Source of the DNA: Bacillaceae bacterium
GTDB taxonomy: Bacteria; Bacillota; Bacilli; JACDOE01
Direction of reading: 5' to 3'
Assembly (NCBI GenBank): GCA_017656255.1
Contig: JACDOE010000010.1
Span: 36,400 to 100,399, forward strand
Length of the DNA stretch: 64,000 nt
The translations under genes were made by a program, and so were the position numbers. Shown piece by piece: positions 2,676-58,536 of this stretch (within the stretch, counting starts at the first letter, position 1; each line of letters begins with the position of its first letter). A model generated the notes under the pieces. It was not told where the DNA came from, made no database searches, and was given only the letters and a program-made list of their open reading frames with translations.

Positions 2676-2826
2676 TACGCTTACCTCCTTTTACTAAATG
2701 GAATGTATGACGCATAAAATAAACATGTATGATATAGTTATAATATTCAGAATTTTATCCACCTTCATTGTATACCGGTTAGACTCAAGAAAACCATTCC
2801 CGAAAAAAGGGGGGTGAAATGTGTCG

Positions 2827-3498
2827 ATGAACACGGATAACATGAGGCCTTACGTTTCTGAAGAACCTCTGGAAAAATTGAAGGAGATGATGCGGACCAG
2901 CCTGGAGCTTTTTCCGTTTCAGAGAGCCTCACTTTTTACATATTCTCCACTGACACAGGAGGCTCAGGGACTATTGGCGGCAACGCCCTGCGGCATTTTC
3001 TCCATGGAACATATCAAAGAAGATGTCCGCTCCATTCCCCTGGTTGAAATGGCGATTAAACAAAAAAAGGCGCAATTCGCCGTTATTTCCAGGTCCACTT
3101 TTCTTTTTCCTGAGAAATATATAGAGGCTTTTTCTCTTTCTTCCCTGCTGGTGGTCCCCCTGTGTGATCAGCATGCCGTGACCGGCTGTGTGCTGGCCGA
3201 TCGTTTTAGTCGGGACCAGGCCATCGATGATGTCCTGATCGGGAAGGTTGAACGGTACTTTAATCATGAGGTAAAAAAGATGATCGGTCGGGAGGAACCG
3301 GTCTGCAAATTGAGCCGGCGGGAGAGGGAAATCCTGTACTGGTTCTCCCGGGGACTGGGGACGAAGGAAGTGGCGGACCGCATCCGGATCAGTGAATATA
3401 CGGTGCGGGATTATACGAAGTCCTGTATGCGAAAACTGGGGGCGAAAAACCGGACGGAAGCGGTGGCGATTGCGCTACGGGAGAGGATGATTGATTAA
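2827..3498 (+). CDS. LuxR/GerE-family HTH transcriptional regulator with N-terminal sensory (GAF-like) domain
   Basis: C-terminal 'LSRREREILYWFSRGLGTKEVADRIRISEYTVRDYTKSCMRKLGAKNRTEAVAIA' is a LuxR-type HTH. I chose the ATG at 2827 over the GTG at 2821 because it sits 9 nt after GGGGGTGA. Confidence 0.8.
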   Translation: MNTDNMRPYVSEEPLEKLKEMMRTSLELFPFQRASLFTYSPLTQEAQGLLAATPCGIFSMEHIKEDVRSIPLVEMAIKQKKAQFAVISRSTFLFPEKYIEAFSLSSLLVVPLCDQHAVTGCVLADRFSRDQAIDDVLIGKVERYFNHEVKKMIGREEPVCKLSRREREILYWFSRGLGTKEVADRIRISEYTVRDYTKSCMRKLGAKNRTEAVAIALRERMID

Positions 3499-3503
3499 AT
3501 GAA

Positions 3504-3533
3504 AAAGAGGACGTATGTCGTCCCCTTCTTTGA
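3504..3533. terminator. bidirectional rho-independent terminator between the LuxR-family gene and the sigK 3' fragment
   Basis: 'aagaGGACGtatgtCGTCCccttcttt'. On the minus strand the stem is followed by a 'ctcttttt' run, 15-40 nt after the sigK-fragment stop codon. Confidence 0.6.
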
Positions 3534-3544
3534 TGTTTACTCTG

Positions 3545-3920
3545 TTATTTTCGTTCCGGATGTTTGCGGTAAAATTCATGCAGCAGCTTCATCAAGGCCC
3601 TTTTTTCAATCCGGGAGACATAGGAACGTGAAATCCCCAGCTCTCTGGCAATTTCCCGCTGCGTCTTTTCTTCTCCCGATTCAAGCCCGAACCGGCCGAT
3701 GATCACCTCCTTTTCTCTTTTATCCAGCACGTGAATGTTTTTGTAGATCTTGCTTCGTTCGATTTTGAATTCCACTTTGTCGATGACTTCGTTGGCGTCT
3801 GTTCCGAGGATATCCATCAGGCTGATTTCGTTACCTTCTTTGTCGGTGCCGATTGGATCGTGGAGGGAAACGTCTTTGCGGGTTTTTTTGAGGGAGCGCA
3901 GGTGCATGAGGATTTCATTT
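3545..3920 (-). pseudogene. sigK: sigK 3' fragment (codons 122-245 plus stop); direct repeat of 8150-8525
   Basis: 376 bp that match the 3' part of the intact sigK except for one base (3551 t versus 8156 g, a synonymous Arg codon). Homology stops abruptly at 3920|3921. There is no upstream sigK sequence. Confidence 0.9.
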
Positions 3921-3941
3921 CTAAAGTCAATATTTGAGCTA

Positions 3942-3965
3942 TAAATTTGTTATATGAATGTTTAT
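3942..3965. repeat. direct repeat flanking the methyltransferase gene (partner at 4841-4861)
   Basis: 'taaatttgttatatgaatgtttat' versus 'taaatttatatgaatgtttat'. A 15-nt exact core 'tatatgaatgtttat' lies at 3951-3965 and 4847-4861. Confidence 0.6.
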
Positions 3966-4024
3966 TCTCTTTCTTTAAAAAAATCTATAATAAAAACTAT
4001 TATAAGTTTCATATACTCACTAAC

Positions 4025-4801
4025 TTATTTCACTGCCTTCCATATTGTCCATCTATCTTTTTCGACTATATTTTTTTCTATATTAATTGACTTATCTATA
4101 TATTTTATTAGTTTATCCAATTCTTTATCATCTATTTCATATAAAATGCTTCTTCCTGTTCTATTCCTTAAATCTTTAAATAATTCCTCTTTCGTTTCAT
4201 GTACCTTTCTTATTTCCCATAACTTAACTTCTATAACATCTCTGAATCCAACATATTTAAGGGATTCAATAACAGTTTGTCCATTATGACGTCGATCAAT
4301 TTCTTTTTCAATTAGTCTGGGGAAAAGTTTAAAAAAATATCCTCTAATATGAGTTTCGTCCCCTTCTAATAAGCAATCTTCAGGGGTACGGTCTTGAACA
4401 ATATAATATCCATCTTTCTTTAATAATCTATATGCTTCTTTGAAACAAGCATATAAGTCATTAATATGATGTATTAATGCTCTTTCAAGTAATAAATCAA
4501 AACAGTCGCTTTCTAAATCAGTATCAAAAGCATTTCCATACTTAAAAGATATGTTTTTATATTCCTTACAGTTTTCTTCAGCTTCTTTAAGTATAGCTTT
4601 TGAAAAATCAACACCAGTAACGGAAGGTACACCCATATCCGAAAGTGCTTTACAATATATTCCACCACCACAACCGACATCTAAAGCTTTAGAAACATTT
4701 TCGATTGGTACAAGTTTTTTAATTGCTTCTATCCATGATTTGTCTGCCTTTCGTGTTGAATAAGTCTTGCTGTTTTTCTTATTATGAAAATCTATACCCA
4801 T
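4025..4801 (-). CDS. class I SAM-dependent methyltransferase
   Basis: Motif I is 'ALDVGCGGGIYCKAL'. I chose the ATG at 4801 (MGIDFHNKK...) because it sits 7 nt after GAGGAG; the longer ORF reaches 4816. Confidence 0.8.
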   Translation of the reverse strand: MGIDFHNKKNSKTYSTRKADKSWIEAIKKLVPIENVSKALDVGCGGGIYCKALSDMGVPSVTGVDFSKAILKEAEENCKEYKNISFKYGNAFDTDLESDCFDLLLERALIHHINDLYACFKEAYRLLKKDGYYIVQDRTPEDCLLEGDETHIRGYFFKLFPRLIEKEIDRRHNGQTVIESLKYVGFRDVIEVKLWEIRKVHETKEELFKDLRNRTGRSILYEIDDKELDKLIKYIDKSINIEKNIVEKDRWTIWKAVK

Positions 4802-4840
4802 GGTAAATCTCCTCATTCTATTGATTAAACTTTTATAGGG

Positions 4841-4861
4841 TAAATTTATATGAATGTTTAT
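4841..4861. repeat. direct repeat flanking the methyltransferase gene (partner at 3942-3965)
   Basis: See the feature at 3942-3965. Confidence 0.6.
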
Positions 4862-4926
4862 AATTTACCTCTTTAATTTTAAAACATACCACTAATGTTG
4901 CATAAATAGTTACAGAAAATCCAGAT

Positions 4927-5690
4927 TTATATGTTTGCGTGGAAATGGGCTAAAAAGCCAAATGCTAAAGTAAAATGTCCATTTAGAGTTGCAACGATAT
5001 AGATTTTCTTATGGACTACCTCGGATTTCCCATTGAATTTGGCGAACCATTTTTGAAAGGGATTTAATGTTTGTAACCAACGTTTGAAGAAGGGATTGCT
5101 TTGTTCTGTTTCCACGAGTAAACAATTTGTGATTAGGGCGGATTAAAGTCGGTTTTGAACCACCGTTTCCCATTTATACCATAAAAACCCTTTATTCAAA
5201 CATGTTGCTTAAACTATTTGAATAACTTAATTCCCCAACGAAACCAGTAGGTGTTACTAATCTGTTTAGCACTAATATCAAAGCGACTAGTAACGAATAT
5301 CTTTGCCTTGTGAGTCTACCGTTTCCACTAATTGAAATTCATTTTCGGTTCGCTTTACGTAGTTCCGATGACAAAGAGTCTAAGGAAATCGTTTTTATTT
5401 CAGATATAGCAAAGTGCTTGATTGTACAGTTCAACAACGGAATTTTTCTTGAGTCGTGAAGCAAAAGAAAATCCTTTAATAAGAAAAGCGATCAAAAAAC
5501 GTACATAGATTCTTTTTAGTCAATCAAAATCTCATGTTGCTAAAATTTGTTCACACGTTAAGAGTGATGATGACTTTCTCCGTAGATGGTACCGAAATCG
5601 ATAAATGCCAAACTTAAGTATAGTTTTACCCCTGCTTTTGTTTTTTGCGAAAGGATTCTCACTGGTAGTTTGTTAAATACATGTAGAATA
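4927..5690 (-). pseudogene. degenerate IS4-like DDE transposase remnant(s)
   Basis: Minus-strand frames are broken by many stops. They read '...ISNTYWFRWGIKLFK*FKQHV*IKGFYG...' (about 5165-5250) and 'NPFFKRWLQTLNPFQKWFAKFNGKS' (4990-5100). Both resemble the C-terminal Y-2-R-3-E-6-K / 'RWxIExxFKxLKQ' region of IS4-type transposases. Confidence 0.35.
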
Positions 5691-5932
5691 ATACTTGAAT
5701 TAATGATTTATAGATCAACTCATTTACCAAATAACTTGTCACATAGCGTTTTCCTTTCCTTTACTTTAGATTTGGATAGGGATCACCTATACTCTCCATT
5801 GTAAAGGATTTATAACACTTGCAGATCGAACATTCATTGTATTTTTAATACTCTGATTTAATTATTACAATACTAATACATAACAATCTGAATTATAAAT
5901 ATTATTCAAAGATTAACTTTGAAAGGTGCGTT

Positions 5933-7144
5933 TTATTTCATATCCAACTTACTGTTATACTTAATCGAGTCGGGAAGTGGAATATGCTCTACCTTAGGAA
6001 GAGATAAAAGACTTAGTAAACATAAACCCATAAATCCCAAGAATACATAGTGCGTATTCATAATCCCAGCCAAATACCCAGAAAGCAAGGCTGAAGAAAT
6101 CTTAGCAAATGATACCACAATTGACCGGAAACTAATCACGCGGCCCATTAACTCTTTAGGAGTGTTAATCTGAACCAGTGTCTGCATAGAAATCACATGA
6201 AATAGAATGAAGAATCCGAACCCGAACAAAGCAAAAACTGTAAACCAAACGTACCCATCAATTCCCATAAATAAGGAAAATACTACTAAACCAACTAAAG
6301 TTACCACACTAACTTTCTCTTTATATTTATATAATGCTTTTTCCACAACAAATCCACCCAATGATCCACCTAGTGTGAATGAAATGGTTATTATAGAAAA
6401 TAAAACGCTGGAACCTTTCATATCTCGTGCAACCATTGGAGCGAGTAGAGTATTTGTCATTTGATACCCTGCACTACTAATAGTAGCGAGGAAAAACAAG
6501 TATAACATTCCTCTTTTTTCATTTACAAACTTCCAACCAACTTTAATACCTTCAATAACGTCCATACTTTTACTTTGAATATTACGTCTATCTATTCGAC
6601 GAAGCAGTATAAAGAAAATTGATGATACCATAAAGGTTAATGCATTGATTGCAAAACAAATTTCTACTGATAAAATAGACATTACGATTCCTGCTATACC
6701 AGTACCAATCAATGCCATGACAAAATTAATTGAAGATGACTTAGAGATAACATAAACCATTTCTTCATCGCTGAATGATTCTCTAATTAACGTTTGAGAA
6801 GATGGCTTAAATACCAGATGACAAACTGCTAAAACAACTTGAAGAAGATAAAACATAACAATTGATATAGTATCTATAAAAATTAACAGAACAACAATAG
6901 ATACAGCTAACCCACGAATTAACTGAACAGCAACTGTTAACACTTTGGAGTCCTGATGGTCTGTAATTATTCCTACCCATGGTGCGAAAAATAAGGGAGG
7001 TAGGTAATTAATGGCGATTAATATTCCAAGGGACAGGGGACTTCCTGTAAGTTTTAAAACCAACCACATCAACGCTACCGATTGGAAACCATCTCCTAAA
7101 TTATTAATTGCTGAACCTAACAAATAAAAGAACTTATTTCGCAT
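5933..7144 (-). CDS. MFS transporter
   Basis: 403-aa ORF with about 12 hydrophobic helices and an MFS-like N-terminus ('LGDGFQSVALMWLVLKLTGSPLSLG'). GGAAGGG RBS upstream. Confidence 0.8.
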   Translation of the reverse strand: MRNKFFYLLGSAINNLGDGFQSVALMWLVLKLTGSPLSLGILIAINYLPPLFFAPWVGIITDHQDSKVLTVAVQLIRGLAVSIVVLLIFIDTISIVMFYLLQVVLAVCHLVFKPSSQTLIRESFSDEEMVYVISKSSSINFVMALIGTGIAGIVMSILSVEICFAINALTFMVSSIFFILLRRIDRRNIQSKSMDVIEGIKVGWKFVNEKRGMLYLFFLATISSAGYQMTNTLLAPMVARDMKGSSVLFSIITISFTLGGSLGGFVVEKALYKYKEKVSVVTLVGLVVFSLFMGIDGYVWFTVFALFGFGFFILFHVISMQTLVQINTPKELMGRVISFRSIVVSFAKISSALLSGYLAGIMNTHYVFLGFMGLCLLSLLSLPKVEHIPLPDSIKYNSKLDMK

Positions 7145-7308
7145 AGTTGTGCCCTTCCATTTTTTATTTTAACTGGAAAATCATTTTATTTAGAAACATT
7201 AAATCGAGGAGGAATCGAAAAATAACATTCAAAAACACACTCTCTAAAATATATCCTTAAACTGTTGCTATTCGAATTCCTCCTCTGACATTCATGAAGT
7301 GAAGTGTT

Positions 7309-8083
7309 TTATTGTCTTCGTAATGAAAGGTTAGATAACTTAACGAAGCGTTTATATTTAAGAATAGTATCTAATACATCGCAAAGAATTAACATATTAG
7401 ACTCTTCCCCTGGAAAGTCACCCCAACTATCGTCATCGTTGCGAATGCTCATTAACCATTTGAAACCTTTTTCAATAGTGTTATGCCAAGAATAATCATC
7501 AAGGAGTTCACTCGCTAATATTAATGCTCGAATACTGTCACAAGTGTGGTCAACATTCATGTTATCGTAATGTCCTTCAGGATGTTGAGTCTTAACCAAG
7601 TATTGAACTGCTTTCTTAGAAGCTTTAACACCTTTCTTATCATATCCAAGAGTCTTTTGTAATAAGTGTGCTGTAACACAAACTGGTGTTTCATACTTTT
7701 CTTTATATTCCCATTCACCATCCTTACCCTGTCTTTCTATAATAAACTCCATAGCTTTGTTGTAAGGTTCTTCTACCATGTTTCTAATACGTTGTGGTAT
7801 ATCTGGAAGCATTCTAGCGAACATCAATGTACCGGCGCTTACACTAACAGCATCATAGAGTCCCCACTTATCATCCCACAAAGTCCCATCCTCTTTTTGT
7901 TGAGTGATTAACCAGGATAACCCATTATAAATTGCATTATCAAATCGCTCATTCCTCTGAGACAATGCATTATTAGCACGTAGAAGCATTTGTGTAGAAA
8001 ACGCAGTTTTTCTTACATGGCTTTTAATTTCCTTAGTGGTATTTCCCCAGCCACCATCCTCATGTGGGATAGAGCCCCATCTG
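7309..8083 (-). pseudogene. 5'-truncated prenyltransferase / squalene-hopene-cyclase-repeat (alpha-alpha toroid) protein
   Basis: Repeated 'DG.W' motifs are present ('HEDGGWGN', 'QKEDGTLWDDKWG', 'RQGKDGEWEY', 'TQHPEGHYDN', 'RNDDDSWGDF'). The frame stays open up to 8083 with no start codon until 7989, so the N-terminus appears to be missing at the segment boundary. Confidence 0.55.
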
Positions 8084-8149
8084 AATTAACAGGGTCTGGG
8101 GTTTACACAGAAAAATTGACAGACCCTCCCCTTATTTTGACGTGTGCTT

Positions 8150-8525
8150 TTATTTGCGTTCCGGATGTTTGCGGTAAAATTCATGCAGCAGCTTCATCAA
8201 GGCCCTTTTTTCAATCCGGGAGACATAGGAACGTGAAATCCCCAGCTCTCTGGCAATTTCCCGCTGCGTCTTTTCTTCTCCCGATTCAAGCCCGAACCGG
8301 CCGATGATCACCTCCTTTTCTCTTTTATCCAGCACGTGAATGTTTTTGTAGATCTTGCTTCGTTCGATTTTGAATTCCACTTTGTCGATGACTTCGTTGG
8401 CGTCTGTTCCGAGGATATCCATCAGGCTGATTTCGTTACCTTCTTTGTCGGTGCCGATTGGATCGTGGAGGGAAACGTCTTTGCGGGTTTTTTTGAGGGA
8501 GCGCAGGTGCATGAGGATTTCATTT
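8150..8525. repeat. 376-bp direct repeat (partner at 3545-3920)
   Basis: Offset is exactly 4605 bp. I found one mismatch. Confidence 0.9.
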
Positions 8526-8887
8526 TCAATACATCTTGCTGCGTATGTGGCCAATTTGGTCCCTTTGTTTACCTTGTAACTTTCGATGGCCTTGATCAGC
8601 CCGATGGTGCCGATGGAGATCAAGTCTTCGCTGTCTTCGCCGGTGTTTTCAAATTTCTTGACGATATGCGCCACCAGGCGAAGGTTATGCTCGATCAGCA
8701 TATTCCGTGCCTCAACATCTCCCTGTTCCATCAAGCGTAAGTATTTCTCCTCGTCTTCTTCCGACAGTGGCTGGGGAAAGGCATTGTTCTTGACGTAGGA
8801 GACGAACAGAATCAGTTCTTTGTACAGAAGCGCCAGTAACCCGAGCAGTCCAGACACCCGATCCCACCTCCAGGAATAGTGCTTCAT
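8150..8887 (-). CDS. sigK: RNA polymerase sporulation sigma factor SigK (pro-sigma-K), intact copy
   Basis: 245 aa with a pro-sequence plus '[20 protein letters not shown]', '[37 protein letters not shown]' and '[24 protein letters not shown]'. Co-linear with B. subtilis SigK over its whole length. Confidence 0.93.
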
Positions 8888-8925
8888 TTATGCCTATTCC
8901 CTTCTGGGCTTGTTTGTGTCTGTAC
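8656..8925. repeat. 270-bp direct repeat (partner at 15292-15561)
   Basis: Offset is exactly 6636 bp. I found four mismatches: three are synonymous codon changes and one lies in the 5' UTR. The repeat covers codons 1-77 plus 38 bp upstream of the ATG. Confidence 0.9.
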
Positions 8926-9010
8926 TAAAAAAACTGTAATCAGTTTTATTTGCTTTTTTAAATTCTTTAAGTAAGTATCATATAACACCATAACAGACAG
9001 TAAAAGACAA

Positions 9011-9034
9011 GATCCCGGTTTGAATACCGAGATC
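9011..9034 (-). terminator. terminator after the last gene of the segment-B operon
   Basis: The minus strand reads 'GATCTCGGTattcaaACCGGGATCttgtctttt', starting 28 nt downstream of the stop at 9062. Confidence 0.55.
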
Positions 9035-9061
9035 ATCACAGTAACTTAATACATCTCTAAT

Positions 9062-9562
9062 TTAATTAACCTTCTGATCATAAAACGCAATGGCCTCATC
9101 TATTAATTTTTCAAGATGTGGTTTAAGTTCAATTGCTTTTGATTTAGCTTTGTGTGTGTCATAGCCTAAATCAATTAAAAATGCATATGTACTAACCATT
9201 TCCAAAAACTGAGAACTTTCCTTGACCATAGAATTCAAAAGATCAGTATTAATTTTTAAAGAGTATCCTCCATCAGCTTCTAAAGTTTCTTTAAATGCTT
9301 TCCCCTTCTTAGTAATAGAGTACACATAAGCTTCATCGTTTTTTGATTCAGTTAGAAATCCTTGTTGTACTAAAGTATTTATCTCTTCTTGAAGTTCTGC
9401 AGAATATGGGCCATAAAAGTGGTATTCATACTTAAATGGTAAATCTAATCCGGCTGATTCAAGCAAATGCACCATCTTTTGTACCTTTTTTCGACCGTGT
9501 ACCTTTTTAATTTCATCAAACAGACTCAATAAACTGTAGGCTCCTTCGAACAATTCAATCAC
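9062..9562 (-). CDS. YwgA / SocA(Panacea, DUF4065)-like protein
   Basis: 166 aa. 'KVQKMVHLLESAG...YHFYGPYSAELQEEINTLVQQGFL' resembles the YwgA-type partner of YwfO-type HD proteins. It overlaps the upstream HD gene by 4 nt. Confidence 0.55.
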   Translation of the reverse strand: MIELFEGAYSLLSLFDEIKKVHGRKKVQKMVHLLESAGLDLPFKYEYHFYGPYSAELQEEINTLVQQGFLTESKNDEAYVYSITKKGKAFKETLEADGGYSLKINTDLLNSMVKESSQFLEMVSTYAFLIDLGYDTHKAKSKAIELKPHLEKLIDEAIAFYDQKVN

Positions 9563-10869
9563 CCTCCAAAAATTTCATTTTTATAATCTTCGGGCATAAA
9601 GTATCTATCTATAGAGATTTTTTTATTTCTAATTCCATTAATTATATCAGAGATCACTGATAATTCTGTACCATTTCCGTTATTATCAAATAAAATTATT
9701 TGCTCTGAAGCTTCACGTTCGCCTTCTTTTTCATCCGTTTTGGGCGTATGAAAAATATAGGGATCTTTGTATGAACTACTTTTAGCTTCGTCCATTAGAA
9801 AGTAGTACTTAATTGGAATGCCTTTTTTGTTTGAATATTCGAATACCTCCTGCCAAAACTCCATAGGACTTTTGTCTGGAATGGAAACTGACTTAAAAAA
9901 CTTTCTTCTTAATAGTCGAGTACAAAGATCGCTCAATATCGAATCTTGGTGTCTACTCCATATCGAAATAAAATACCAAATCGTATTATCTGTTAAATTA
10001 ATATAATTATGTAGTGTTTCTTTAAGGTTGCCTTTTTCTGATAAAATCCGAATCAAATCTTCAGGAAATTCAATCTCCTGTTTTTCTTGAAAAATCTCAT
10101 AAGCTCTATTAAATATTTTATCTACTAGTAGTTCAGCGCTCCGAGTTGTTTTGTGAAAATACACATTCATATACATATAGTACCTTGCCATAACAAAATC
10201 TTCGGCTATACTAATACCTTTTTCAAGATCTAACCCTACCTCAATTTGACCATTATATTCACCGATTCTCAATACATTTATCATCCATTCAAGATCGAAT
10301 GAACCGTAGCCTGCACCAGTCATTTTAGAGTCTCTTAATAAATAATCAATTCTATCTGTATCTAACTGACTTGATAACAATTTCACAAGAGCTTTGGATC
10401 TATGAGTTCGTTGAATAACATCAGCAACTTCATCTGGGTCCACATTGTACTTTTTGAGAACGCTATTGATTTCTGTATCCCCACGTATTATTTCTATTGT
10501 CCACTTTTCATGTCTAACGCCAGTTGTTTTTTCTAAAGCATGGGAAAAAGGGCCATGCCCAATATCATGTAGGAGTGCTGCAGTTAATGCTAACATTCTA
10601 TTATCAGCTAGCTCTTGAGAATATTGTTTGTATTGTTCATCCTTTAAGCTACATATCTTATTAATAAATCTTTTAGTTAAATGTGTCACACCAATAGAAT
10701 GAGCAAACCGAGTATGTTCGGCTCCTGGATATGTAAATGACGATAATCCAAGTTGTTTTATATGGCGTAGTCTTTGAAATTCTTGGGTATCTATTAATTC
10801 CAAAAGCAAAGCATCTGATTCTTTATCAAAATGAATAATATTATGTACGGGATCACGAATAGTTTTCAC
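9559..10869 (-). CDS. HD-domain dNTP triphosphohydrolase-like protein (SAMHD1 / EF1143 / YwfO family)
   Basis: 436 aa with 'IRDPVHNIIHF', 'FQRLRHIKQLGLSSFTYPGAEHTRFAHSIGV', 'LLHDIGHGPFSH' and 'DTDRIDYLLRDS'. These are hallmark motifs of the family. Confidence 0.8.
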   Translation of the reverse strand: MKTIRDPVHNIIHFDKESDALLLELIDTQEFQRLRHIKQLGLSSFTYPGAEHTRFAHSIGVTHLTKRFINKICSLKDEQYKQYSQELADNRMLALTAALLHDIGHGPFSHALEKTTGVRHEKWTIEIIRGDTEINSVLKKYNVDPDEVADVIQRTHRSKALVKLLSSQLDTDRIDYLLRDSKMTGAGYGSFDLEWMINVLRIGEYNGQIEVGLDLEKGISIAEDFVMARYYMYMNVYFHKTTRSAELLVDKIFNRAYEIFQEKQEIEFPEDLIRILSEKGNLKETLHNYINLTDNTIWYFISIWSRHQDSILSDLCTRLLRRKFFKSVSIPDKSPMEFWQEVFEYSNKKGIPIKYYFLMDEAKSSSYKDPYIFHTPKTDEKEGEREASEQIILFDNNGNGTELSVISDIINGIRNKKISIDRYFMPEDYKNEIFGG

Positions 10870-10917
10870 ATTATCACCCCATTATAAAACTCTTTAATTA
10901 TTATCTAACTCGACAAA

Positions 10918-11556
10918 CTAGAATGCATTGTGTTTTCCCATTTGTCTCAGTACTTCTAATCTATCTAAACAACTTGTACATAATAAGCAATGTCGATCCC
11001 CTAAAGCATTACAAGAAAAGGTTTTTTCTATTGGTACTGACATGTTAATTGCCTCATCAATTACAATCTGTCTGTCTAAACCCACAAATGGAGTGATCAA
11101 TTCAAATTCATGAAGTGATTCTGAAAGAGTAGTAGATATGCTCTCTATAAATGACTTACTTGTATCCTTATAAGATCTTGACCCAGTCACACCTATTGCT
11201 ATTTTTCGTATATCGTTTTTATACGCATATGCTCCAGCCAAAGATATTAAAATCATATTTCTGTTCGGAAAAAACTCGGTATTAAACCATTCTTCTGCTG
11301 AATATCCTGATTGAGGACTATCCCCCACAAGTGATCCAGAGCCAAGGTGCTTCATATTAGAAATGTCTAAAAATAAGACTTTATCCGCATACTCATTTCC
11401 TATTATTGATTTAATTGCTCTAATTTCGCCAGACACTGTTACTTGCCCATAGTTAATATGAATAGGGAATATATCGTATTTTCTTTTTCGCAACCAATAA
11501 TAAAGAACAACAGAATCAATGCCCCCTGATAATAATAATACGACTTTTTTTCTCAT
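10918..11556 (-). CDS. QueC-like PP-loop ATPase (7-cyano-7-deazaguanine synthase family, divergent)
   Basis: 212 aa with the 'LLLSGGIDS' PP-loop, 'INYGQ', 'FFPNRNMILISLAG' and a C-terminal Cys cluster 'SCNALGDRHCLLCTSCLDR'. Co-linear with QueC. Its start overlaps the upstream stop (ATGA). Confidence 0.75.
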   Translation of the reverse strand: MRKKVVLLLSGGIDSVVLYYWLRKRKYDIFPIHINYGQVTVSGEIRAIKSIIGNEYADKVLFLDISNMKHLGSGSLVGDSPQSGYSAEEWFNTEFFPNRNMILISLAGAYAYKNDIRKIAIGVTGSRSYKDTSKSFIESISTTLSESLHEFELITPFVGLDRQIVIDEAINMSVPIEKTFSCNALGDRHCLLCTSCLDRLEVLRQMGKHNAF

Positions 11557-12818
11557 AATATATACAACTTCTCTATTAATTCTTCAATAGATTCAACTAT
11601 AACATTACAACCATAAACTAGCATATTATTTAATTCAAACTGTGAGGTTTTTAAAGCAATTATAGGGATACCTCTTTCATAAGCAAACCCAACTTCAAAA
11701 CATGTACCCGGATCATTATGATCTAACAATGCTACCACAACATCAGATTGTCTTATCAAGTCAAGATCTTTATCAAAAATATTTTTGCGTTCATCCATTG
11801 GTGTGTCTTTCTTTATAATTCCATTTTCTCGTAGAGGTGATAAAACTTTAAATCCACAATTTTCTATTCTATTCGTTATTAATTTAACCCAATCCTCTTC
11901 CTGTTTACTAAAAAATGGACCTGCCAAGTAAACGCTTTTGTCTGAATTACCAGATACAACAATTTCTCTTCTGTCCATATCTTCTTCTACCGCTACTCTA
12001 TTTATTATATTTTCAATTGTAAAATTCTCAATGAAGTTAGCAGCAACACAACTTGCTAACCTCGTACTATACTCAATATCCCTCGTCCTGAGAAATGTAG
12101 CAGCTAATGCACCACCAAAAACATCACCAGAGCCTAAAGTGCATTTAACATTACTTTTATACGCCGGTATATGTATAGTCTTTCCTTCGTTTACTAGAAT
12201 ACAACCTTTATATCCTCTTTTTACGATTATGTACTTAGGCCCCATATGAATTAACTTTTCAATAGCATTCTCTAAAGTATTTGCTTGAGTTAATAATAAA
12301 ACCTCTTCCTCATTTACTAAAAGTACAGATACATATTCTAAAATTTTTCTAGCATCATGAATTGATTTGCTATTTGGTTTTGGGTCAAGAAAAACAGGAA
12401 TATTTTTTTCACATGCTTGCTTACATAAATCTTCCGGAAGCGAGTGATCCACTGGAAATACTAAGATACCCTCACATTCATCACTTAGCTGTGGATTATA
12501 TTCAATACCGATTTTAACATCTATCAAAGGAGTACTTTTTTTAACTTCATAAGCTTTATAACCTTTTACTAAATATTTTGGCAGACAATAATTTTCCATA
12601 TATTTAGCACTCGAAAAACTTACACCCATTAAGTTCCATATTTTTATACTATATGAATCGATTTCGGGCCCGTATACTGTCATAAACTCAACATTGATGC
12701 CTTGTTTTGCTGCAGATATTGATGCATATAAACCGGCTCCCCCAAATCTATCGATAATCTTTGTATCATAATCTAATAATAAGTCAATACCTATCTCTCC
12801 GTATACAGCAATATTCAT
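11553..12818 (-). CDS. fusion protein: PfkB-family sugar/nucleoside kinase + nucleoside 2-deoxyribosyltransferase-like domain
   Basis: The N-terminal part has 'GGAGLYASISAAKQG' and 'TLGSGDVFGGALAA' (PfkB signatures). The C-terminal part has 'VYLAGPFFS' and 'DPGTCFEVGFAYERGIPIIAL' (NDT/DNPH1-type motifs). I chose the start at 12818 (MNIAVYG...) because it sits 5 nt after GTGAGGTGA. Confidence 0.75.
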   Translation of the reverse strand: MNIAVYGEIGIDLLLDYDTKIIDRFGGAGLYASISAAKQGINVEFMTVYGPEIDSYSIKIWNLMGVSFSSAKYMENYCLPKYLVKGYKAYEVKKSTPLIDVKIGIEYNPQLSDECEGILVFPVDHSLPEDLCKQACEKNIPVFLDPKPNSKSIHDARKILEYVSVLLVNEEEVLLLTQANTLENAIEKLIHMGPKYIIVKRGYKGCILVNEGKTIHIPAYKSNVKCTLGSGDVFGGALAATFLRTRDIEYSTRLASCVAANFIENFTIENIINRVAVEEDMDRREIVVSGNSDKSVYLAGPFFSKQEEDWVKLITNRIENCGFKVLSPLRENGIIKKDTPMDERKNIFDKDLDLIRQSDVVVALLDHNDPGTCFEVGFAYERGIPIIALKTSQFELNNMLVYGCNVIVESIEELIEKLYIL

Positions 12819-12823
12819 CGGTA

Positions 12824-13534
12824 TCACCTCACGAATTGAAAGTATCCGTTTCTCCCTAATATCCATAATAAATAGTCCATCTTACCTAAAGGCACTCCAA
12901 TCTTCAAGCAAATAATTCGTAATGCTTCTTCATATTGTAAGTAAACCTTTTCTGTTATGTTTTTAGGAATATTATATCCTAAGTAACCAAGAAATCTTAG
13001 TATATGGATATCCAGTACTGCACAATCATTATTAAATCCTGTATTCCTTAATAGCCAACTAGCTGATTTCATGCCAATACCTGGACATTCACATAGCCAT
13101 GTTCTAGCATCAAATGAATTAAGTTCATTAAGTTTATCAAATAATCTCCAGTGACAGTTCTCCCAAAGCCAATATCCAGCCTTGGATATAACCTTAGGCT
13201 TCGTTTCCACAAATCTATATTTTCTGAACTGGCCGTTACAAGTAATGGGATAAAACTGCTTTTTTGATAACTCTCTCTTTATTACATTTTCAATTATATA
13301 TAAGTTAGATATAGAGGAATAATATTTTGCTTCGATTAACCCTTTATTCTTTAATACATGTAAACCTGATTTGTTTAACTCATAACTGATTCCAAATCCT
13401 CCAAGAACTACGAAAAAAAATTCATCTATAACTTGTTCATTAGATTTTGAAACAAACGAAAACTCTCTTTCAATTGCAATACCATAAGTTTCCCAAAGTT
13501 CTTTTAACACATTGAATGCTCTAGTATTTTCCAT
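12824..13534 (-). CDS. Ogg2/AGOG-like HhH-GPD DNA glycosylase (N-glycosylase/DNA lyase type)
   Basis: 236 aa. 'CPGIGMKSASWLLRNTGFNNDCAVLDIHILRFL' shows a helix-hairpin-helix with the Lys and downstream Asp arrangement of bifunctional Ogg2-type enzymes. Confidence 0.65.
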   Translation of the reverse strand: MENTRAFNVLKELWETYGIAIEREFSFVSKSNEQVIDEFFFVVLGGFGISYELNKSGLHVLKNKGLIEAKYYSSISNLYIIENVIKRELSKKQFYPITCNGQFRKYRFVETKPKVISKAGYWLWENCHWRLFDKLNELNSFDARTWLCECPGIGMKSASWLLRNTGFNNDCAVLDIHILRFLGYLGYNIPKNITEKVYLQYEEALRIICLKIGVPLGKMDYLLWILGRNGYFQFVR

Positions 13535-13540
13535 ATCACT

Positions 13541-13891
13541 TTACGCCTCTACCTCTACTGTAACCTTCGGGTCATGTTGATTCCCTTCTTTTTTTATTAC
13601 AACCCCCTTGTATTCCCACCCTTCTTCAATACATTTTAAGAGCCAACTGTATTTTGGAGGAACGACCCCTATACTAAAATTATCTTTTTCTTTTTTTACT
13701 TCCATGACCGGCAATGTATCATCATTTCTTAAGATAATAGACACTTCATCATTCACAGAAACATTTCTCCACACTGCTTTTTGATTCTCATTAACAATTA
13801 ATAAAATTGTAACTTTTTCACCGCATCTATTTACTGTTTTTCCAGTTCCTCCTCCAAAACCACCAAATGATGAAAAGCCACCACTTCCCAT
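13541..13891 (-). CDS. small protein with Gly/Phe/Ser-rich N-terminus and beta-rich body (possibly HIRAN-like); first gene of the operon
   Basis: 116 aa beginning 'MGSGGFSSFGGFGGGTGK'. Strong AAGGAGGA RBS. Its stop lies 6 nt before the next start. No family was recognised with confidence. Confidence 0.55.
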   Translation of the reverse strand: MGSGGFSSFGGFGGGTGKTVNRCGEKVTILLIVNENQKAVWRNVSVNDEVSIILRNDDTLPVMEVKKEKDNFSIGVVPPKYSWLLKCIEEGWEYKGVVIKKEGNQHDPKVTVEVEA

Positions 13892-14024
13892 ATAAATCCT
13901 CCTTACTAGTTATTTTTTTTTTTGCAATCTTTATAATACTCCAAAACTATTTATATTTAAATTAAATGAAATCTCATTTTGATCACTTCTTTTGTAAATT
14001 GTCTAATGTGCTTAGAATATGTTA

Positions 14025-14860
14025 TTATTTCTCTAGACCAAATTCTCTTTTTAATTTATTAAAGTCATATTCTTTTATTTCGATTGGGATACTAAGGTTC
14101 TTAAGTTTTGACATCAAATCGCTTTTATTAACAACAGGTTTGTCCTCGTAAACAATTGCGAATATCAATTTAAAATTATTTATTGAAGCACTGTCTAAAT
14201 TTTTAGCTGTCTGATATAACGATTCAATAACATTACGAGTTAACTTACCTCGTTTATTATATTTTATCTCAAATCCATAAGTTGAATTATCAGTTTTACT
14301 AATACCATCAATTTCAATTAACTTATCAGAAGATTTAAATGCCATGTGTCTCTGAATAGGAATTTTAAATTCTTGTTCAAGTTTCCTAAACACCAAATCT
14401 TCAGCTAAAAAGTATTGCATTTTGGGATCAACAGTCACTTTGGAAGGCATGTCTAACGTACCCGCTTTATCCTCTTCAATATTATTATCACTAGAAGATT
14501 CTTCAAGCTCTGCTTCTGCTTTCTTTCTTTGTGAATCACTAGTTAATTTTAAGAAATTCCCTTCATCCTTAAAATCACTTGGCGCATATAATTTGGTATG
14601 ATAAAAATCACAAGTCTATAAAATGTAAATAAAACAAGTAAAGGGAAAATTACTATGAAACACACAAGGAACCATTTTTGAGAAACATTTAATTCCGAAC
14701 TAAATTGAAGTACTAATGCTGCTATTCCATAAATTAGTGATATAAATAATGCAATGATACCTAAGGGGTTCTTTGTAAAACCTGATGCACTTCTCGTGAA
14801 TTCTATTATTATCGCTCACCTTCCTTGTAAAAATTTTAAAATGATGCCAACGTTACTCAT
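14025..14860 (-). pseudogene. disrupted membrane-anchored PD-(D/E)xK-like protein
   Basis: The ATG at 14860 begins 'MSNVGIILKFLQGR'. An in-frame TGA follows at 14816-14818. Two hydrophobic helices come next, then a frame change at a T-run near 14600-14610. After that the frame runs into the 141-aa ORF 14025-14450, which has 'IEIDGIS...YGFEIKY'. Confidence 0.5.
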
Positions 14861-15283
14861 TCTTAATACCAATCCAAATCATATCCGTGGACAAAAATGG
14901 CTGGAAAATATAAAACATGTCTGAGTATCAAAAAATTAATCTTTTAATATAACATTCTTCTCTTTTTTCTCATTAACTCCTCCTAGCTTTTGTGCACACC
15001 AATATATTAAAAAACAATCTTCAAAACTATACTTACTCCTTTTAGATCAAAGATCAAAAAATCCCTAACAAAAAAATTAGTGTTTATTCTCAATTGTATT
15101 TCGGTAAAAAAACAGATAATCCCTTTTAGGACAAATAAAAAATAATTAGTAAGGATATCACTCTATACTATATACTTATCTGAATTAATAGGTTTAATTG
15201 GTTTTATAATTATCTTCTTTTAGCTATTTGAAACCCCCCCTGACCCAGCACCACACCAGCATTCTTCCGACATCGCTTCGTGT

Positions 15284-15523
15284 TCACAACCTCTTGACGA
15301 TATGCGCCACCAGGCGAAGGTTATGTTCGATCAGCATATTTCGCGCCTCAACATCTCCCTGTTCCATCAAGCGTAAGTATTTCTCCTCGTCTTCTTCCGA
15401 CAGTGGCTGGGGAAAGGCATTGTTCTTGACGTAGGAGACGAACAGAATCAGTTCTTTGTACAGAAGCGCCAGTAACCCGAGCAGTCCAGACACCCGATCC
15501 CACCTCCAGGAATAGTGCTTCAT
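15284..15523 (-). pseudogene. sigK: sigK 5' fragment (codons 1-77, then 'RL' and a stop)
   Basis: The 79-aa ORF matches intact SigK through '...[10 protein letters not shown]'. Homology ends at 15292. Confidence 0.9.
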
Positions 15524-15561
15524 TTATGCCTATTCCCTTTTGGGCTTGTTTGTGTCTGTAC
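15292..15561. repeat. 270-bp direct repeat (partner at 8656-8925)
   Basis: See the feature at 8656-8925. Confidence 0.9.
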
Positions 15562-15669
15562 CGGAGATTTGTTTTTGCTCTTTTGTTAAAAACTGTTTAA
15601 GCATTTTTAACACTAGCGTTCTCAAATAAATTTAATGTTTCTGTCCTTCACTTCTTTTTTCTACAAGTA

Positions 15670-15710
15670 AACAAACATCCCGCAATACCTTAATAGTAAT
15701 GCGGGATATT
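15670..15710 (-). terminator. terminator of the Hen1-Pnkp operon
   Basis: 'ATCCCGCA-15 nt loop-TGCGGGAT', followed on the minus strand by 'gtttgttt'. Confidence 0.5.
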
Positions 15711-15742
15711 ATGAGAACCTTTTAGACATACCCTTCTTTACC

Positions 15743-18346
15743 TTATAACCTCGGGTCAATTTCTTTCTCTTTACTTACTTCAAATAGCATGTTAGCAACC
15801 ACCTGTTTATATTTATGATCTGACTCATTTATTTTATCTAAATGAAAGGCCAACATCTCTTTCCCAAGTTTGAATTCATTGATAGAGGTTTTTAGTTTCT
15901 TTGAAATATTTTTTTGCTTTAAAAGCTTGGCATATTTGTGTGGAAAGCGATAATCATATCCATAAACAATGGTTAAATAATCTGGATTGCGAACTTTCAT
16001 ATAAGGGGCAGTATCATCTGCCAATTTTTCAGGTTTAATCACGACACCTTCCATTTTTCTTTCTGTTGTCAAAGTCTTAAAAAAGGTTAAAGCTTTTTCA
16101 TAATAATCCTGTTCGTTTAAATCGATCAACATAAATTCATCATCAGATACAAACTTAAAAATTTCCGATGTTGATTCTGCAGGGATGATCTCTTCTCCAT
16201 TTTCCTTGACCATTTTTAAAATATTAAATGGTTTATAGTTAATCTCATCATCCTTTGCATAGAGCTCGATTTGTTCATGATATTTTTGATGGGCTTCCAC
16301 ATGTTTTTCTATTGGTTCATATGACTTTAACATAGTTTGCAACGCCTTATAAGTCTGGTAAGTGGCACCGCCAAACTTTTTAATCAAATCTTTCTTAGAC
16401 ATTGTTTGCTGATCGACTTCATAGTCACTTGATTTATATTGCTCAACAAGTTTTTGAAAGTGGGCATCAAAGCCTTGCTCCTTTAAAAAATCCAACTCTG
16501 TTTGTAAAGCTCTGTCTATAGTCCTAAATTGCTTTTCAATCAATTCCTCTCCCAAAATAGACCAGGGCAGTAATTCACCATCAAACACGATTGTTTTTAT
16601 TTTATTCTCTTTCATGTAATCCGAAAATTTATTTAACAGATTATCATATACCGGAGACAAATCCACTTTCTTAATTTTAAATCCATTTCGACTCACTGCA
16701 TAACATTGATCTAGTTCCCTTGCTAAGTAAATGTTACATCTTGACCCCATGTACTTCGGTTGCAAAACCACTTTATGGACGCCTTTTCTCTTAAAATACA
16801 ACAACCCCTGTTTTAAAGATTCCAATTCATTGCTATCCAAATCTTTGTCAGCCGGCGACATGGTACCAGAAATATAATTAATCTTATTTTTCAAGACATA
16901 ATTAAGGCGCTTTTGGTCCTGTTCATGTAAATCCTCGATGTTAACATGTTTATCTCTTTGTTTAAATAAAGTAGGTAAAGGTTCGTTCCAGTATTTACTA
17001 GTGCTTGTAATTCGCTGCTGTTTAAAAAACGGTCTCCAGGAGTCAATCACAACAGAAGAAAGAACATTTCCATTGGCAGCTCCCGTATCAATGTTAATCT
17101 TATTTTTAATTTGGACTATTTCTTTTACAGCAACATGTCCAAAAATATGATACGGATGATTTCCAACACTCTCTGACTCCAGAAAGTGCAATTGCTCCTC
17201 GTAGGGTTTTTCTCGATCAAGAACAAAGCTTCTTTGCTTTTTCAGAGACGTTTTATCTAACTTCCCTATATATTTGTTTTGACACGGAGCATGTGTCACA
17301 TAAAAGGAAGGCTTTTGTAATCCAATATACCTGTAGAATTCTTTCGAAGATTCAACGAGTCGGAAAAATTTGTGTTTTAAATCCTCATCCTTTTCAAAGA
17401 TTTCTATAGAGTCAAAGTAGTTGTCTAGTAAACTTGAATCTACTGAATTCTTATCAATTTCACCTTTCAAGTATTTGTAAACAAAATTCTCATGATTTCC
17501 TTTTACAAGCACAAAATGATCCATATTTTGTTCAATAAATTCTACCGTCTCTTTGGTAGCATTTCCTTTGTCAATCCAGTCTCCGTTAAGAATAATTTTA
17601 TATTCATCCGTTTTTTCAGTGGATAAAATACGATTATTTTCAATATTAAACCCATAGCTGATAAGCAGCTTTTTTAAATCAGCCACTTTTTCATGAACAT
17701 CTCCAACAATTATATATTTGTGTTCCTGCGGCAAAATATGACTGAGATAATGATCTAAATCCTCTATCATAATTTTATAATTTGCATTCGGTTCATTGGT
17801 ATCAGGGTTATAGAAATCCCGCTCCCTAATTTTGTGTATTCGACGAAATTTTGACTTTGAAATTTGTTTCAGAACCTCTCTTTTGAGACGAGTGACATGA
17901 TTTGAAATTAATCGTCTTGAACCACCTGAAGCATAGAAATCTTCTCTATTTTTAAAATCAAAAAGTATAGCTTCCAGGTTATATTGCTTTTCTTTAGCAA
18001 TTTCCATGATTTGCTCACGGAATTCTTCTGAAAGGCCAATTGTATCAACAATGACGAACTCGGCGTTAATTGGAAATGACGTAACGGCTTTTAGTTTCTC
18101 AAATAAAATATGAAAGGCTTGTTCGCTGCTTTCCATCATAATTCTGTCATGTTTGTCATATTCATGTCCCAAAATATCCTGCCTGATTTCATCAGAGGAA
18201 ATATATTGAACATTGGTTTTAAAGCCCCGATCCTTATCCTGAATAGAAAGTTGAGGCAACAATATTTCTTTAGCAAATGTTGATTTACCGGAATTAGTAG
18301 CACCAATTAACATAAATATGGTATGCATATTTGTTTTTAATTCCAT
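15743..18346 (-). CDS. pnkp: bacterial polynucleotide kinase-phosphatase (Pnkp): kinase + metallophosphoesterase + ligase/adenylyltransferase domains
   Basis: 867 aa. Contains an N-terminal P-loop 'IGATNSGKSTFA', central 'IIVGDVHE...GDWIDKG...GNHE' phosphoesterase motifs, and a C-terminal 'QPKYMGSRCNIY' ligase-like lysine motif. Confidence 0.85.
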   Translation of the reverse strand: MELKTNMHTIFMLIGATNSGKSTFAKEILLPQLSIQDKDRGFKTNVQYISSDEIRQDILGHEYDKHDRIMMESSEQAFHILFEKLKAVTSFPINAEFVIVDTIGLSEEFREQIMEIAKEKQYNLEAILFDFKNREDFYASGGSRRLISNHVTRLKREVLKQISKSKFRRIHKIRERDFYNPDTNEPNANYKIMIEDLDHYLSHILPQEHKYIIVGDVHEKVADLKKLLISYGFNIENNRILSTEKTDEYKIILNGDWIDKGNATKETVEFIEQNMDHFVLVKGNHENFVYKYLKGEIDKNSVDSSLLDNYFDSIEIFEKDEDLKHKFFRLVESSKEFYRYIGLQKPSFYVTHAPCQNKYIGKLDKTSLKKQRSFVLDREKPYEEQLHFLESESVGNHPYHIFGHVAVKEIVQIKNKINIDTGAANGNVLSSVVIDSWRPFFKQQRITSTSKYWNEPLPTLFKQRDKHVNIEDLHEQDQKRLNYVLKNKINYISGTMSPADKDLDSNELESLKQGLLYFKRKGVHKVVLQPKYMGSRCNIYLARELDQCYAVSRNGFKIKKVDLSPVYDNLLNKFSDYMKENKIKTIVFDGELLPWSILGEELIEKQFRTIDRALQTELDFLKEQGFDAHFQKLVEQYKSSDYEVDQQTMSKKDLIKKFGGATYQTYKALQTMLKSYEPIEKHVEAHQKYHEQIELYAKDDEINYKPFNILKMVKENGEEIIPAESTSEIFKFVSDDEFMLIDLNEQDYYEKALTFFKTLTTERKMEGVVIKPEKLADDTAPYMKVRNPDYLTIVYGYDYRFPHKYAKLLKQKNISKKLKTSINEFKLGKEMLAFHLDKINESDHKYKQVVANMLFEVSKEKEIDPRL

Positions 18347-19618: not shown

Positions 19619-19773
19619 CTACTTTCACTCCTGTTATTTCCCTCAATCATTTTCCAATAAACCAATAAACTTTAATTGCTATACTAACCTGATTCCCAGT
19701 TCAAAAGAATAATCAAATAAAATATGAAAAGAGGAAAAATGTAGTCCCCTTTTCCTAGTGCTTGGTAAAAATA

Positions 19774-21105: not shown

Positions 21106-21294
21106 ATTTTCACCTACTCCTTAAAAGCCTTTTATCAATTTCATATTCTACAAATTTCAACAATTACCTTTAAGTAGAAAAGGCATAAAGAAAGGAGATA
21201 AATATTGCCGCTAATCCCCATGGCTAAATAATGGGCCAAAAGAGAGTAAGATTGCAGATTGTCCTTATTATTATTTTGATCTGGCCAGTACATA

Positions 21295-21643
21295 TCAGGG
21301 TGCTCTATAAGATATTCCTTTTAATCTTTGTAGTCGAATCTTTTGATACCCCCCATCTGAACTCTCGGAAGTGACAATTTCGATGTTAGCACCTAAATCT
21401 TTTAAACGGTTATATAATTATATCCCTTGATAACATTCTTAGAGCTATTTCAAATGTCCCCGATGTCGTTTATAATATGACTACCTTTTCTTATAAACTT
21501 CTTTTCTTCTGCTTTTTGTAGAATATGTTTTAGGTTAACTTCATAATATAAAAACTTGCCCCCAAACAAATTTTTCTCTAATGGTCTATTCCAGGTAATA
21601 CATAATCTGAAAAAGGCCAACCTTTTGTAGGAAAGCCAAACAT
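21295..21643 (-). pseudogene. degraded ORF of unknown family
   Basis: An ATG at 21643 preceded by AGGGAGGG begins 'MFGFPTKGWPFSDY'. The reading then continues only by switching frames at least three times ('ITWNRPLEKNLFGGKFLYYEVNLKHILQKAEEKKFIRKG...', 'YNRLKDLGANIEIVTSESSDGGYQKIRLQRLKG'). Confidence 0.3.
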
Positions 21644-30035: not shown

Positions 30036-30297
30036 CGTATTCTTTCCCTCCCGAAAATGACTCACTTACCAAAATCACGAAACCCTTCCCGTCCATTTTG
30101 TCAAACCATTACCGTTCAATTATTTCCCTGTATTTTTCATTATATATTCAGATTTACTCAATAGCCATAAAAAGTGAAAACACGGCTGTTATAAAAACTT
30201 AAAACCTGCCAATCAATCTGATTGCGATTAAGAGGATTTTGCGACAAAAAATAGAAAGTAGTAAAAAAGAACGATTTTGGTCGAAAGGATTGGAACA

Positions 30298-58458: not shown

Positions 58459-58536
58459 AATAAAAATCCCCTTTCACACCGATTTACTTCCATTTTTGCC
58501 GGTGTAAAAGAGGATTTATACCTTCTTAATGGCAGA

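Follow-up and report, generated by a model that had tools for sequence, protein, structure and literature searches.

Layout of the sigK locus and its repeats

The sporulation gene sigK occurs once intact and twice as a fragment in a 64-kb stretch of contig JACDOE010000010.1 (positions 36,400 to 100,399), which as a whole is called the window. Its source is a metagenome-assembled genome (MAG) recorded as 'MAG: Bacillaceae bacterium'. On the minus strand, a displaced sigK 5' fragment is followed in turn by a cargo segment (cargo B), the intact gene, a second cargo segment (cargo A), a displaced 3' fragment and a terminator (Table 1; codon numbers follow the 245-codon sigK open reading frame, ORF). 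The GC content is about 32% in the cargo and about 48-52% in the host DNA. This order, together with two pairs of repeats that join its parts, had been described in an initial annotation of the window, and both were recovered by a repeat search and by direct comparison of the copies.

Both pairs are direct repeats, and each cargo is thus bracketed by two copies of one contiguous sigK segment. Pair 1 (3542-3920 and 8147-8525; 99.7% identity) shows a sole mismatch, at 3551/8156, and extends 3 bp beyond the stop codon; the single mismatch is as annotated, while the length is 379 bp rather than the 376 bp first given. Pair 2 (8656-8925 and 15292-15561; 98.5% identity) has the 270 bp and the four mismatches (8690, 8705, 8708 and 8904) attributed to it, and 8526-8655 is indeed the only single-copy part of sigK. 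Identity is lost sharply at all four repeat ends, with the exception of a degenerate, gapped similarity to the sigK terminator past the stop codon. No significant similarity was found past the promoter end of pair 2 or past the inner ends of either pair; an extension of the 5' fragment to residue 107 proposed by tblastn proved spurious.

The few differences between the copies are informative. The four that lie in coding sequence are all synonymous, as expected from the earlier suggestion that the copies descend from two functional alleles. In addition, all five differences lie at most 53 bp from a repeat end, leaving identical centres of 195 bp and 369 bp; if placement were uniform, so much clustering at the edges would have a joint probability of about 3e-4. 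Taken with the divergence of about 20% or more that begins just past the stop codon, these synonymous, edge-clustered differences fit two functional alleles whose shared part was later homogenised by gene conversion. The pattern does not fit a pseudogene decaying in place.

The ORF at 8150-8887 encodes a full-length SigK with the Pfam domains Sigma70_r2 and Sigma70_r4, and its closest relatives, in Ammoniphilus, Aneurinibacillus and Brevibacillus, are 80-85% identical. In an alignment of their upstream regions, relatives share GGTACAGGCAC, about 17 nt, (C)ATAAGGATAG, the ribosome-binding site (RBS) GGAGGTG, 6 nt and GTG. Pair 2 begins exactly at the -35 box GTACAGACAC of this conserved core promoter. 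The annotated ATG (8887) adjoins or falls in the -10 region; on the basis of the relatives' promoter and RBS, sigK likely starts at the GTG at 8857, behind GGAGGTG, so that the coding sequence would be 8150-8857 (235 aa). The gene is thus intact as annotated, with a probably shorter product than its 245 codons implied. Like the intact gene, the displaced 5' fragment has a complete core promoter. Since the fragment also retains the RBS and the start, it could express a truncated pro-sigma-K of 69 aa during sporulation.

At the other end of the gene, the intrinsic terminator at 3504-3533 is as good as it had been called (-15.3 kcal/mol). It serves the displaced 3' fragment and a convergent GerE-family gene (2821-3498), and a scan of the plus strand finds the hairpin too. 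The intact gene is followed by a degenerate copy of this region (33/41 matches downstream of the stop codon), and no significant hairpin or terminator was predicted at 8097-8146. As the intact sigK has no recognisable terminator, transcription from its promoter may read through into the three co-directional genes of cargo A.

Such a layout might be produced by the assembly: a single chromosomal sigK would exist, and the cargo would be circles or strain variants threaded into the contig. The MAG source is compatible with this, and so is the behaviour of an independent assembly that we used as a check, the k=31 Logan contigs of run SRR13776092 (comparison loci and Logan contigs carry L-numbers as labels). 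These contigs break inside the repeats, as de Bruijn assembly must, and one of them, L220, stops 50 bp before 8146/7. Nevertheless, contig L221 corresponds to window 15321-8874 and crosses 15291/2 and 8925/6, L220 corresponds to 8096-3891 and crosses 3920/1, and L222 runs from host DNA across 15561/2 into the 5' fragment, all at 100% identity; these four junctions are thus present in a second assembly. Moreover, canonical elements present partly integrated and partly excised could not produce 8925/6 and 8146/7, the repeat copies carry distinguishing single-nucleotide polymorphisms 21-52 bp from the junctions, circles of 4.6 kb and 6.6 kb without a replication gene would not reach chromosomal coverage, and an analogous layout exists in isolate genomes of other species. 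We thus regard an artefact as highly improbable. The end of L220 at 8096 stands apart, the other contigs entering the repeats; a heterogeneous population or low coverage of the degenerate-terminator segment may be the cause. Exact-protein look-ups returned no record for the intact SigK, the 79-aa ORF of the fragment, the GerE-family neighbour or protein P0001.

Attachment arms at the two fragment break points

A scan of IMG/VR with the 3' fragment returned proviruses whose terminal sigK 3' part starts at window codon 122. The cargo sequence next to the fragment, 3921-3934, is the P arm TATTGACTTTAGAA of proviruses bearing a large serine recombinase (LSR) and of Brevibacillus laterosporus B9. 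This arm (TATTGACTTTAGAA or TATTGACTTTAAA) adjoins the sigK 3' part in the LSR-bearing loci L163, L164, L166 and L184 and in B. laterosporus B9, where TATTGACTTTAAA lies beside an annotated recombinase and sigK is split at the codon-121/122 site. The junction arm of L163, ctcTATTGACTTTAGAAtc, matches the cargo A end aaTATTGACTTTAG/AAATGAAATCC. In L163, L165 and L168 the LSR genes stop about 25 bp short of the arm, and in L208 and L223 an inverted copy of the cargo A arm forms attL. In the window the arm occurs once. Cargo A is inserted between ..CIEN and EILMH.. of SigK. Five loci, L169-L173 (L169 being an IMG/VR provirus), encode what we take to be the C-terminal half of B. subtilis SigK, and this half starts at the same residue as the window fragment. 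By this comparison, codon 121/122 is the classical skin site of B. subtilis.

The codon-77 junction, on the side of cargo B, belongs to a different family. A metagenome scan with SigK returned many loci that hold only the 3' part of sigK, starting at residue 72-78. The arm upstream of this part is conserved (GACATCGGTTCGTGTTCACAACC-TCAAGA), and in L114, L116, L119, L120 and L122 the sigK part is also preceded by an LSR of 550-600 aa. These LSRs have the domains Resolvase, Recombinase and Zn_ribbon_recom, and their ORF reaches or crosses the arm. The P arm GACATCGGTTCGTGTTCACAACCTC adjoins the sigK 3' part beside the LSR gene in L122 and L125, and related arms are found in L114, L120, L121 and others. 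In the window, 15267-15291 is an inverted copy (24/25) of GACATCGGTTCGTGTTCACAACCTC; it adjoins the 5' fragment, shares the core TCAAGA with the relatives and occurs once in the 64 kb. Judged from these sequences, 15291/15292 is the attL (B-core-P') of a palindromic attP used by an LSR family that splits sigK at codon 77, and the crossover dinucleotide is deduced to be the AA in codon 77. As a side observation, in four canonical codon-77 elements (L119, L116, L120 and L122) the LSR ORF crosses the attR arm into the sigK 3' part, so that the C-terminus of the recombinase would differ between the integrated and the excised state.

Contrary to what the initial annotation implied, neither break point is unusual: one coincides with the presumed B. 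subtilis skin site, and codon 77 is a second, widely used insertion site in sigK. The arms of the two families, those of the L122/L125-type and of the L163/B9-type recombinases, are GTGTTCACAACC and TTGACTTTAGAA. Short att cores had also been envisaged at all four junctions, while LSR att arms are present only at 3920/1 and 15291/2. The junctions 8146/7 and 8925/6 have none and coincide with the limits of the gene, namely the stop codon with its eroded terminator and the promoter -35 box. At each arm-bearing junction sigK is joined at the core of a family to an arm of that family. Cargo B has the attL of the codon-77 site only and cargo A the attR of the codon-121 site only, so that neither has both attL and attR of one site; the end of each cargo opposite its arm is sigK sequence containing B-type half-sites and a core. 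The cargo is recombinase-less as first described: Pfam searches of all large ORFs found no recombinase in the 64 kb, and tblastn with ten LSRs of related elements of both families found no LSR gene or pseudogene there. Hence no integrase lies in either element, and no SpoIVCA-like LSR stands beside either att site.

The combination of an intact sigK with a displaced fragment at an att site, which had seemed to set the locus apart from known cases, recurs. Using tblastn with SigK against the fetched loci, we found at least six Paenibacillus-type loci (L010, P. allorhizosphaerae; L054, P. zeirhizosphaerae; L058, P. castaneae; L064; L095; L100) in which a displaced 3' fragment, beginning at the codon-77 core and preceded by a P arm, lies 1.3-10 kb downstream of an intact sigK. 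None of the six contains an LSR, and the intervening genes are ordinary ones (ABC permease, alcohol dehydrogenase with a MalT-like regulator, leucine-rich-repeat protein, GerA-like protein). The two sigK copies differ by 3-15%, with synonymous to other differences of 33:0 in L058, 25:1 in L064 and 8:2 in L010, and homology stops a few bp to about 20 bp past the stop codon. Neither GC profiles nor synteny indicated which copy is native in these Paenibacillus loci. The P arm of L010, L113, L158 and L100 has come to resemble sigK in its inner half (CATATCGTC), as though gene conversion had spread into it. Among the loci sampled, the window alone has a displaced 5' fragment, and it alone has relics of two families flanking one intact gene.

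A sigK interrupted twice, which one of the models first proposed for the locus presupposes, does exist in nature: in B. laterosporus B9 (codons 121 and 155) and, in IMG/VR, in L211 and L214 (77 and 155) and L219 (121 and 155). In B9 (L223, NZ_CP011075.1, 69.6-79.8 kb) sigK lies in three pieces, separated by a 3.2-kb mini-element at the skin site (YjdM and an LSR) and by a 6.1-kb element at about codon 155 whose LSR has the opposite orientation. A third LSR docking site thus lies at about codon 155 of the window ORF (L211, L214, L219 and L176-L195, IMG/VR). Fragments starting at about residue 139-143 in L080 and L120 possibly mark a fourth, at about codon 140; L120 combines such a further displaced fragment, from about residue 143, with a canonical, LSR-bearing split at codon 77. 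Two database labels should be read with care: NZ_CP011075.1 is labelled a plasmid yet carries the core chromosomal genes alaS, ruvX and mltG, and a 'plasmid' match with an intact sigK (B. licheniformis pBL141-1) was set aside as a mislabelled chromosomal piece.

Origin of the interrupted arrangement

The locus is probably a sigK that is intact in the germ line and bordered on each side by the immobilised relic of a different skin-type, LSR-driven sigK-intervening element. An origin from skin-like elements had been among the initial proposals, and it is supported by the att half-sites of LSR families that both fragment break points carry. Each relic is without its partner att site and without a recombinase, and where the partner att site would be expected there is instead a complete end of sigK: the -35 box beside cargo B, and the stop codon with its eroded terminator beside cargo A.

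We propose that, on each side, an element-linked copy of one sigK end came together with another, functional sigK allele. Homologous exchange could account for this, as could the Campbell-type integration of an element that had been excised aberrantly or carried a fragment; alternatively, a duplication could have been followed by LSR excision. These routes are equivalent in topology. The outcome on each side would be an intact gene and one displaced end. Gene conversion would then have made the repeat centres uniform, while the older divergence persisted at the edges. The gene would have been freed from the need for developmental excision, and the cargo, immobile by site-specific recombination, would be lost only through RecA acting between the 379-bp or the 270-bp repeats. 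Such a RecA-dependent pop-out of either cargo, already envisaged in the initial annotation, is soundly predicted from the repeats and would leave sigK intact.

Several observations weigh against this proposal. Illegitimate joining at random would hardly be expected to land precisely on the -35 box and on the stop codon. Where canonical elements share these P arms, their LSR gene abuts or overlaps the arm, and simple decay does not predict that cargo A and the six Paenibacillus-type cases would keep a P arm beside ordinary genes. No independent attL of the codon-77 family was found in IMG/VR, where a query with the 5' fragment matched ordinary sigK 5' ends only and searches with two degenerate attL patterns had no result beyond a chance match to IscU; the assignment of the P' arm thus rests on its being an inverted repeat of P. 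Scans of genome collections and metagenomes yielded no relative closer than 83-85% in SigK identity, the nearest SigK being 85% identical, and no ancestral or cargo-free state of the locus. As for the assembly, three of the four cargo junctions have an independent contig and 8146/7 has none, and the phasing through the identical cores of 195 bp and 369 bp rests on the assembler, the source being a MAG.

A precise arm without an LSR, together with junctions at gene limits that are not att sites, keeps alive another explanation, which we consider unlikely: that both cargo segments are cassettes that lack a recombinase, restore sigK and are mobilised in trans by the LSR of a canonical element in the manner of a cis-mobilizable element (CIME) or a satellite. 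Such a doubtful cassette would consist of one att arm, cargo and a sigK end, and its integration at the att core would keep sigK intact while displacing the end of the host gene. In an equally tentative variant, insertion or exchange would proceed by an unconventional reaction of an attR-type site with attB, and the window would hold one 5'-restoring and one 3'-restoring cassette at two sites. This would explain why a P or P' arm is kept without an adjacent LSR in the window and in L010, L054, L058, L064, L095 and L100, why the cargo, at 1.3-7 kb, is small and diverse, why homology stops at gene limits and why differences between copies are almost only synonymous, as between two functional alleles; the P arms are also conserved between species that share only 80-85% identity in sigK DNA. 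However, the circular form would hold a hybrid P-core-B' (attR-type) or B-core-P' (attL-type) site. The integrase of an LSR system alone recombines only attP with attB, attL and attR being auto-inhibited. The cassette is disfavoured because this canonical mechanism does not recombine an attR- or attL-type site with attB. In addition, no circular or free form was seen among the short metagenome contigs with a P arm and a sigK 3' part, such fragments are absent from phage and plasmid records, and neither an LSR in the source genome nor a helper LSR is known. The near-identity of the window repeats would still require gene conversion or a very recent capture.

The boundaries at gene limits and the synonymous-only differences would also be explained if the elements had each carried a complete sigK of their own and split the host gene canonically, a RecA-mediated deletion from the element's sigK to one of the host fragments then removing one att site and the recombinase. 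Only canonical LSR integration and a deletion between direct repeats would be needed, and the replacement of an inactivated target gene by a copy borne on an integrative genetic element has been described (PMC7192596). Against this, no precursor turned up: the 29 matching IMG/VR contigs contain no complete sigK above 60% identity, and among the other loci retrieved when the scan was run (about 160) no intact sigK is preceded by a 5' fragment. Two such elements of different families would also have to have acted in succession. We therefore give this explanation little credence.

If the window holds element relics around a healed sigK, as we favour, it shows the reverse of the textbook case of a gene rebuilt by programmed excision: sigK has been re-created in the germ line, and the scars of the elements have been kept. 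A gene that is cut and re-joined in sporulation would thus have escaped its dependence on a domesticated recombinase. Skin-type elements themselves were already known; new here are relics of sigK-intervening elements around a healed sigK, and a literature search found no description of an intact sigK flanked by displaced fragments. More generally, sigK offers LSRs docking sites at codons 77 and 121, at about 155 and possibly at about 140, double interruption is natural, and an intact sigK with an att arm and a displaced fragment is a recurrent layout. The locus allows the mobilisation of recombinase-less cargo by LSR att arms to be tested; were the cassettes real, sigK would be a non-disruptive docking site for accessory or defence genes in Paenibacillaceae and their relatives. 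Loci of this kind will mislead prophage and island callers as well as pseudogene annotation, and they are prone to RecA-mediated instability.

Cargo, flanks and comparison with known systems

Scans of the cargo with Pfam, NCBIfam and PADLOC identified ordinary genes (Table 1). The cargo A methyltransferase has its nearest homologues, 75% identical, in Peribacillus, Bacillus and Solibacillus, which are low-GC Bacillaceae. In cargo B all family assignments have scores under the curated cut-offs, and PADLOC matched no named defence system; its co-directional cluster (9062-13534) is a candidate nucleoside/DNA-modification or anti-phage island. No near match to the cargo DNA was found among plasmid or phage records, and no homologue of the cargo proteins in the fetched sigK loci. 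The window contains no tRNA gene.

Table 1. Features of the sigK locus, by window position. A slash separates the two parts of a junction sequence.
Feature	Position	Strand	Description
Native intrinsic terminator	3504-3533	-	12-bp stem and U run; -15.3 kcal/mol, z = -2.5
Displaced sigK 3' fragment	3542-3920	-	Codons 122-245, stop codon and 3 bp more; pair 1, copy 1; joins host-GC DNA
P arm of attR at codon 121/122	3921-3942	-	sigK sense aaTATTGACTTTAG/AAATGAAATCC
Cargo A	3921-8146	-	4.2 kb, about 32% GC
Class I S-adenosylmethionine-dependent methyltransferase	4025-4816		Cargo A
Major facilitator superfamily (MFS) transporter	5933-7144		Cargo A
Squalene-cyclase-repeat protein	7309-7989		Cargo A
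Degenerate sigK terminator copy	8097-8146	-	Aligned with 3495-3544; 6-nt gap and substitutions destroy the stem
Intact sigK unit	8147-8925	-	Promoter -35 box to 3 bp past the stop codon
Part of intact unit	8147-8525		Pair 1, copy 2
Part of intact unit	8526-8655		Single copy
Part of intact unit	8656-8925		Pair 2, copy 1
Cargo B	8926-15291	-	6.4 kb, about 32% GC
Cargo B terminator	9011-9034		Cargo B's own
DarG-C-like	9062-9562		Cargo B
HD/dGTPase-like	9559-10869		Cargo B
QueC-like	10918-11556		Cargo B
Ribokinase and nucleoside 2-deoxyribosyltransferase fusion	11553-12866		Cargo B
Ogg-type glycosylase	12824-13534		Cargo B
ORF	13541-13891		Cargo B; no assigned function
ORF	14025-14450		Cargo B; no assigned function
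P' arm of attL at codon 77	15267-15291	+	Plus strand GACATCGCTTCGTGTTCACAACCTC; sigK sense GTCAA/GAGGTTGTGAACACGAAGCGATGTC
Displaced sigK 5' fragment	15292-15561	-	Core promoter, 5' untranslated region, RBS, codons to K77, then 'RL*'; pair 2, copy 2
AT-rich flank upstream of 5' fragment	15562-21500	-	
Pnkp	15743-18346		AT-rich flank
Hen1	18347-19618		AT-rich flank
Spo0M-like	19774-21105		AT-rich flank

The AT-rich flank that extends to about 21.5 kb is probably another, separately acquired island. It places an RNA-repair pair beside the sigK promoter, namely Pnkp (kinase-phosphatase-ligase, 867 aa) and Hen1 (423 aa). Further upstream lies the block ireB-ruvX-DUF1292-mltG-OMT-U32-U32-PBP (56683-63998; OMT, O-methyltransferase; PBP, penicillin-binding protein), which in Ammoniphilus (L081) and B. 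laterosporus (L223) is found directly or a few kb upstream of sigK. In the window, about 41 kb of ordinary genes separate the two, including tandem paralogues of methyl-accepting chemotaxis proteins (37297-39033 and 39480-41219). We considered whether the 41 kb between the conserved alaS..PBP block and sigK form one large element, and rejected this because the genes are ordinary chromosomal ones at host GC. A 728-aa ORF (30277-32463, plus strand) is an unusual fusion of an FtsA/PilM/MreB-like ATPase region with ThiS/ubiquitin-like and TGS/S4-like C-terminal segments; its TTG start is uncertain.

Among the closest known systems is the skin element of B. subtilis, which has the same target gene and the same insertion point as cargo A. 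Its att architecture, a short core with inverted P and P' arms, is also that found here (PMC13141910). In skin, both attL and attR are present and excision in the mother cell depends on spoIVCA and a directionality factor (PMC4191935, PMC6957869). Whereas skin splits sigK in the germ line, so that no intact gene exists before excision, the window has a full-length sigK (8150-8857/8887), one att junction per cargo and no recombinase. The elements of B. laterosporus B9 share with the window a P arm, TATTGACTTTA[A/G]A, at the site matching the cargo A end, and they are likewise small, non-prophage elements that interrupt the gene twice; they differ in having kept their LSR genes and both att sites, with sigK in three pieces instead of an intact gene and displaced ends. 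The 'gin' element in gerE provides a further comparison with a non-prophage element (PMC5595907).

Elements that restore their target upon integration, a general principle (PMC7192596), are represented by tRNA-gene islands and by e14 and phage 21 in icd. As in the window, the target is intact, the displaced end lies on the far side and homology extends to the gene limit; the displaced 3' fragment of the window indeed keeps the native terminator and the host-GC flank, while the cargo follows the intact gene. In contrast, these elements encode their own integrase, usually a tyrosine recombinase, and their displaced fragment starts at the crossover core of that integrase. The window has no integrase, and its arms belong to LSR families that normally disrupt sigK. 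Campbell-type or lambda-dgal-like products resemble the locus in that direct repeats of a gene segment bracket foreign DNA and in being reversible by RecA, but the window inserts have one site-specific att end each, the other end being at a functional limit of the gene. Finally, CIMEs offer the likeness of an integrase-less cargo beside an att sequence of a known recombinase family; they keep both att sites and use tyrosine recombinases, whereas each cargo of the window retains a single canonical arm.

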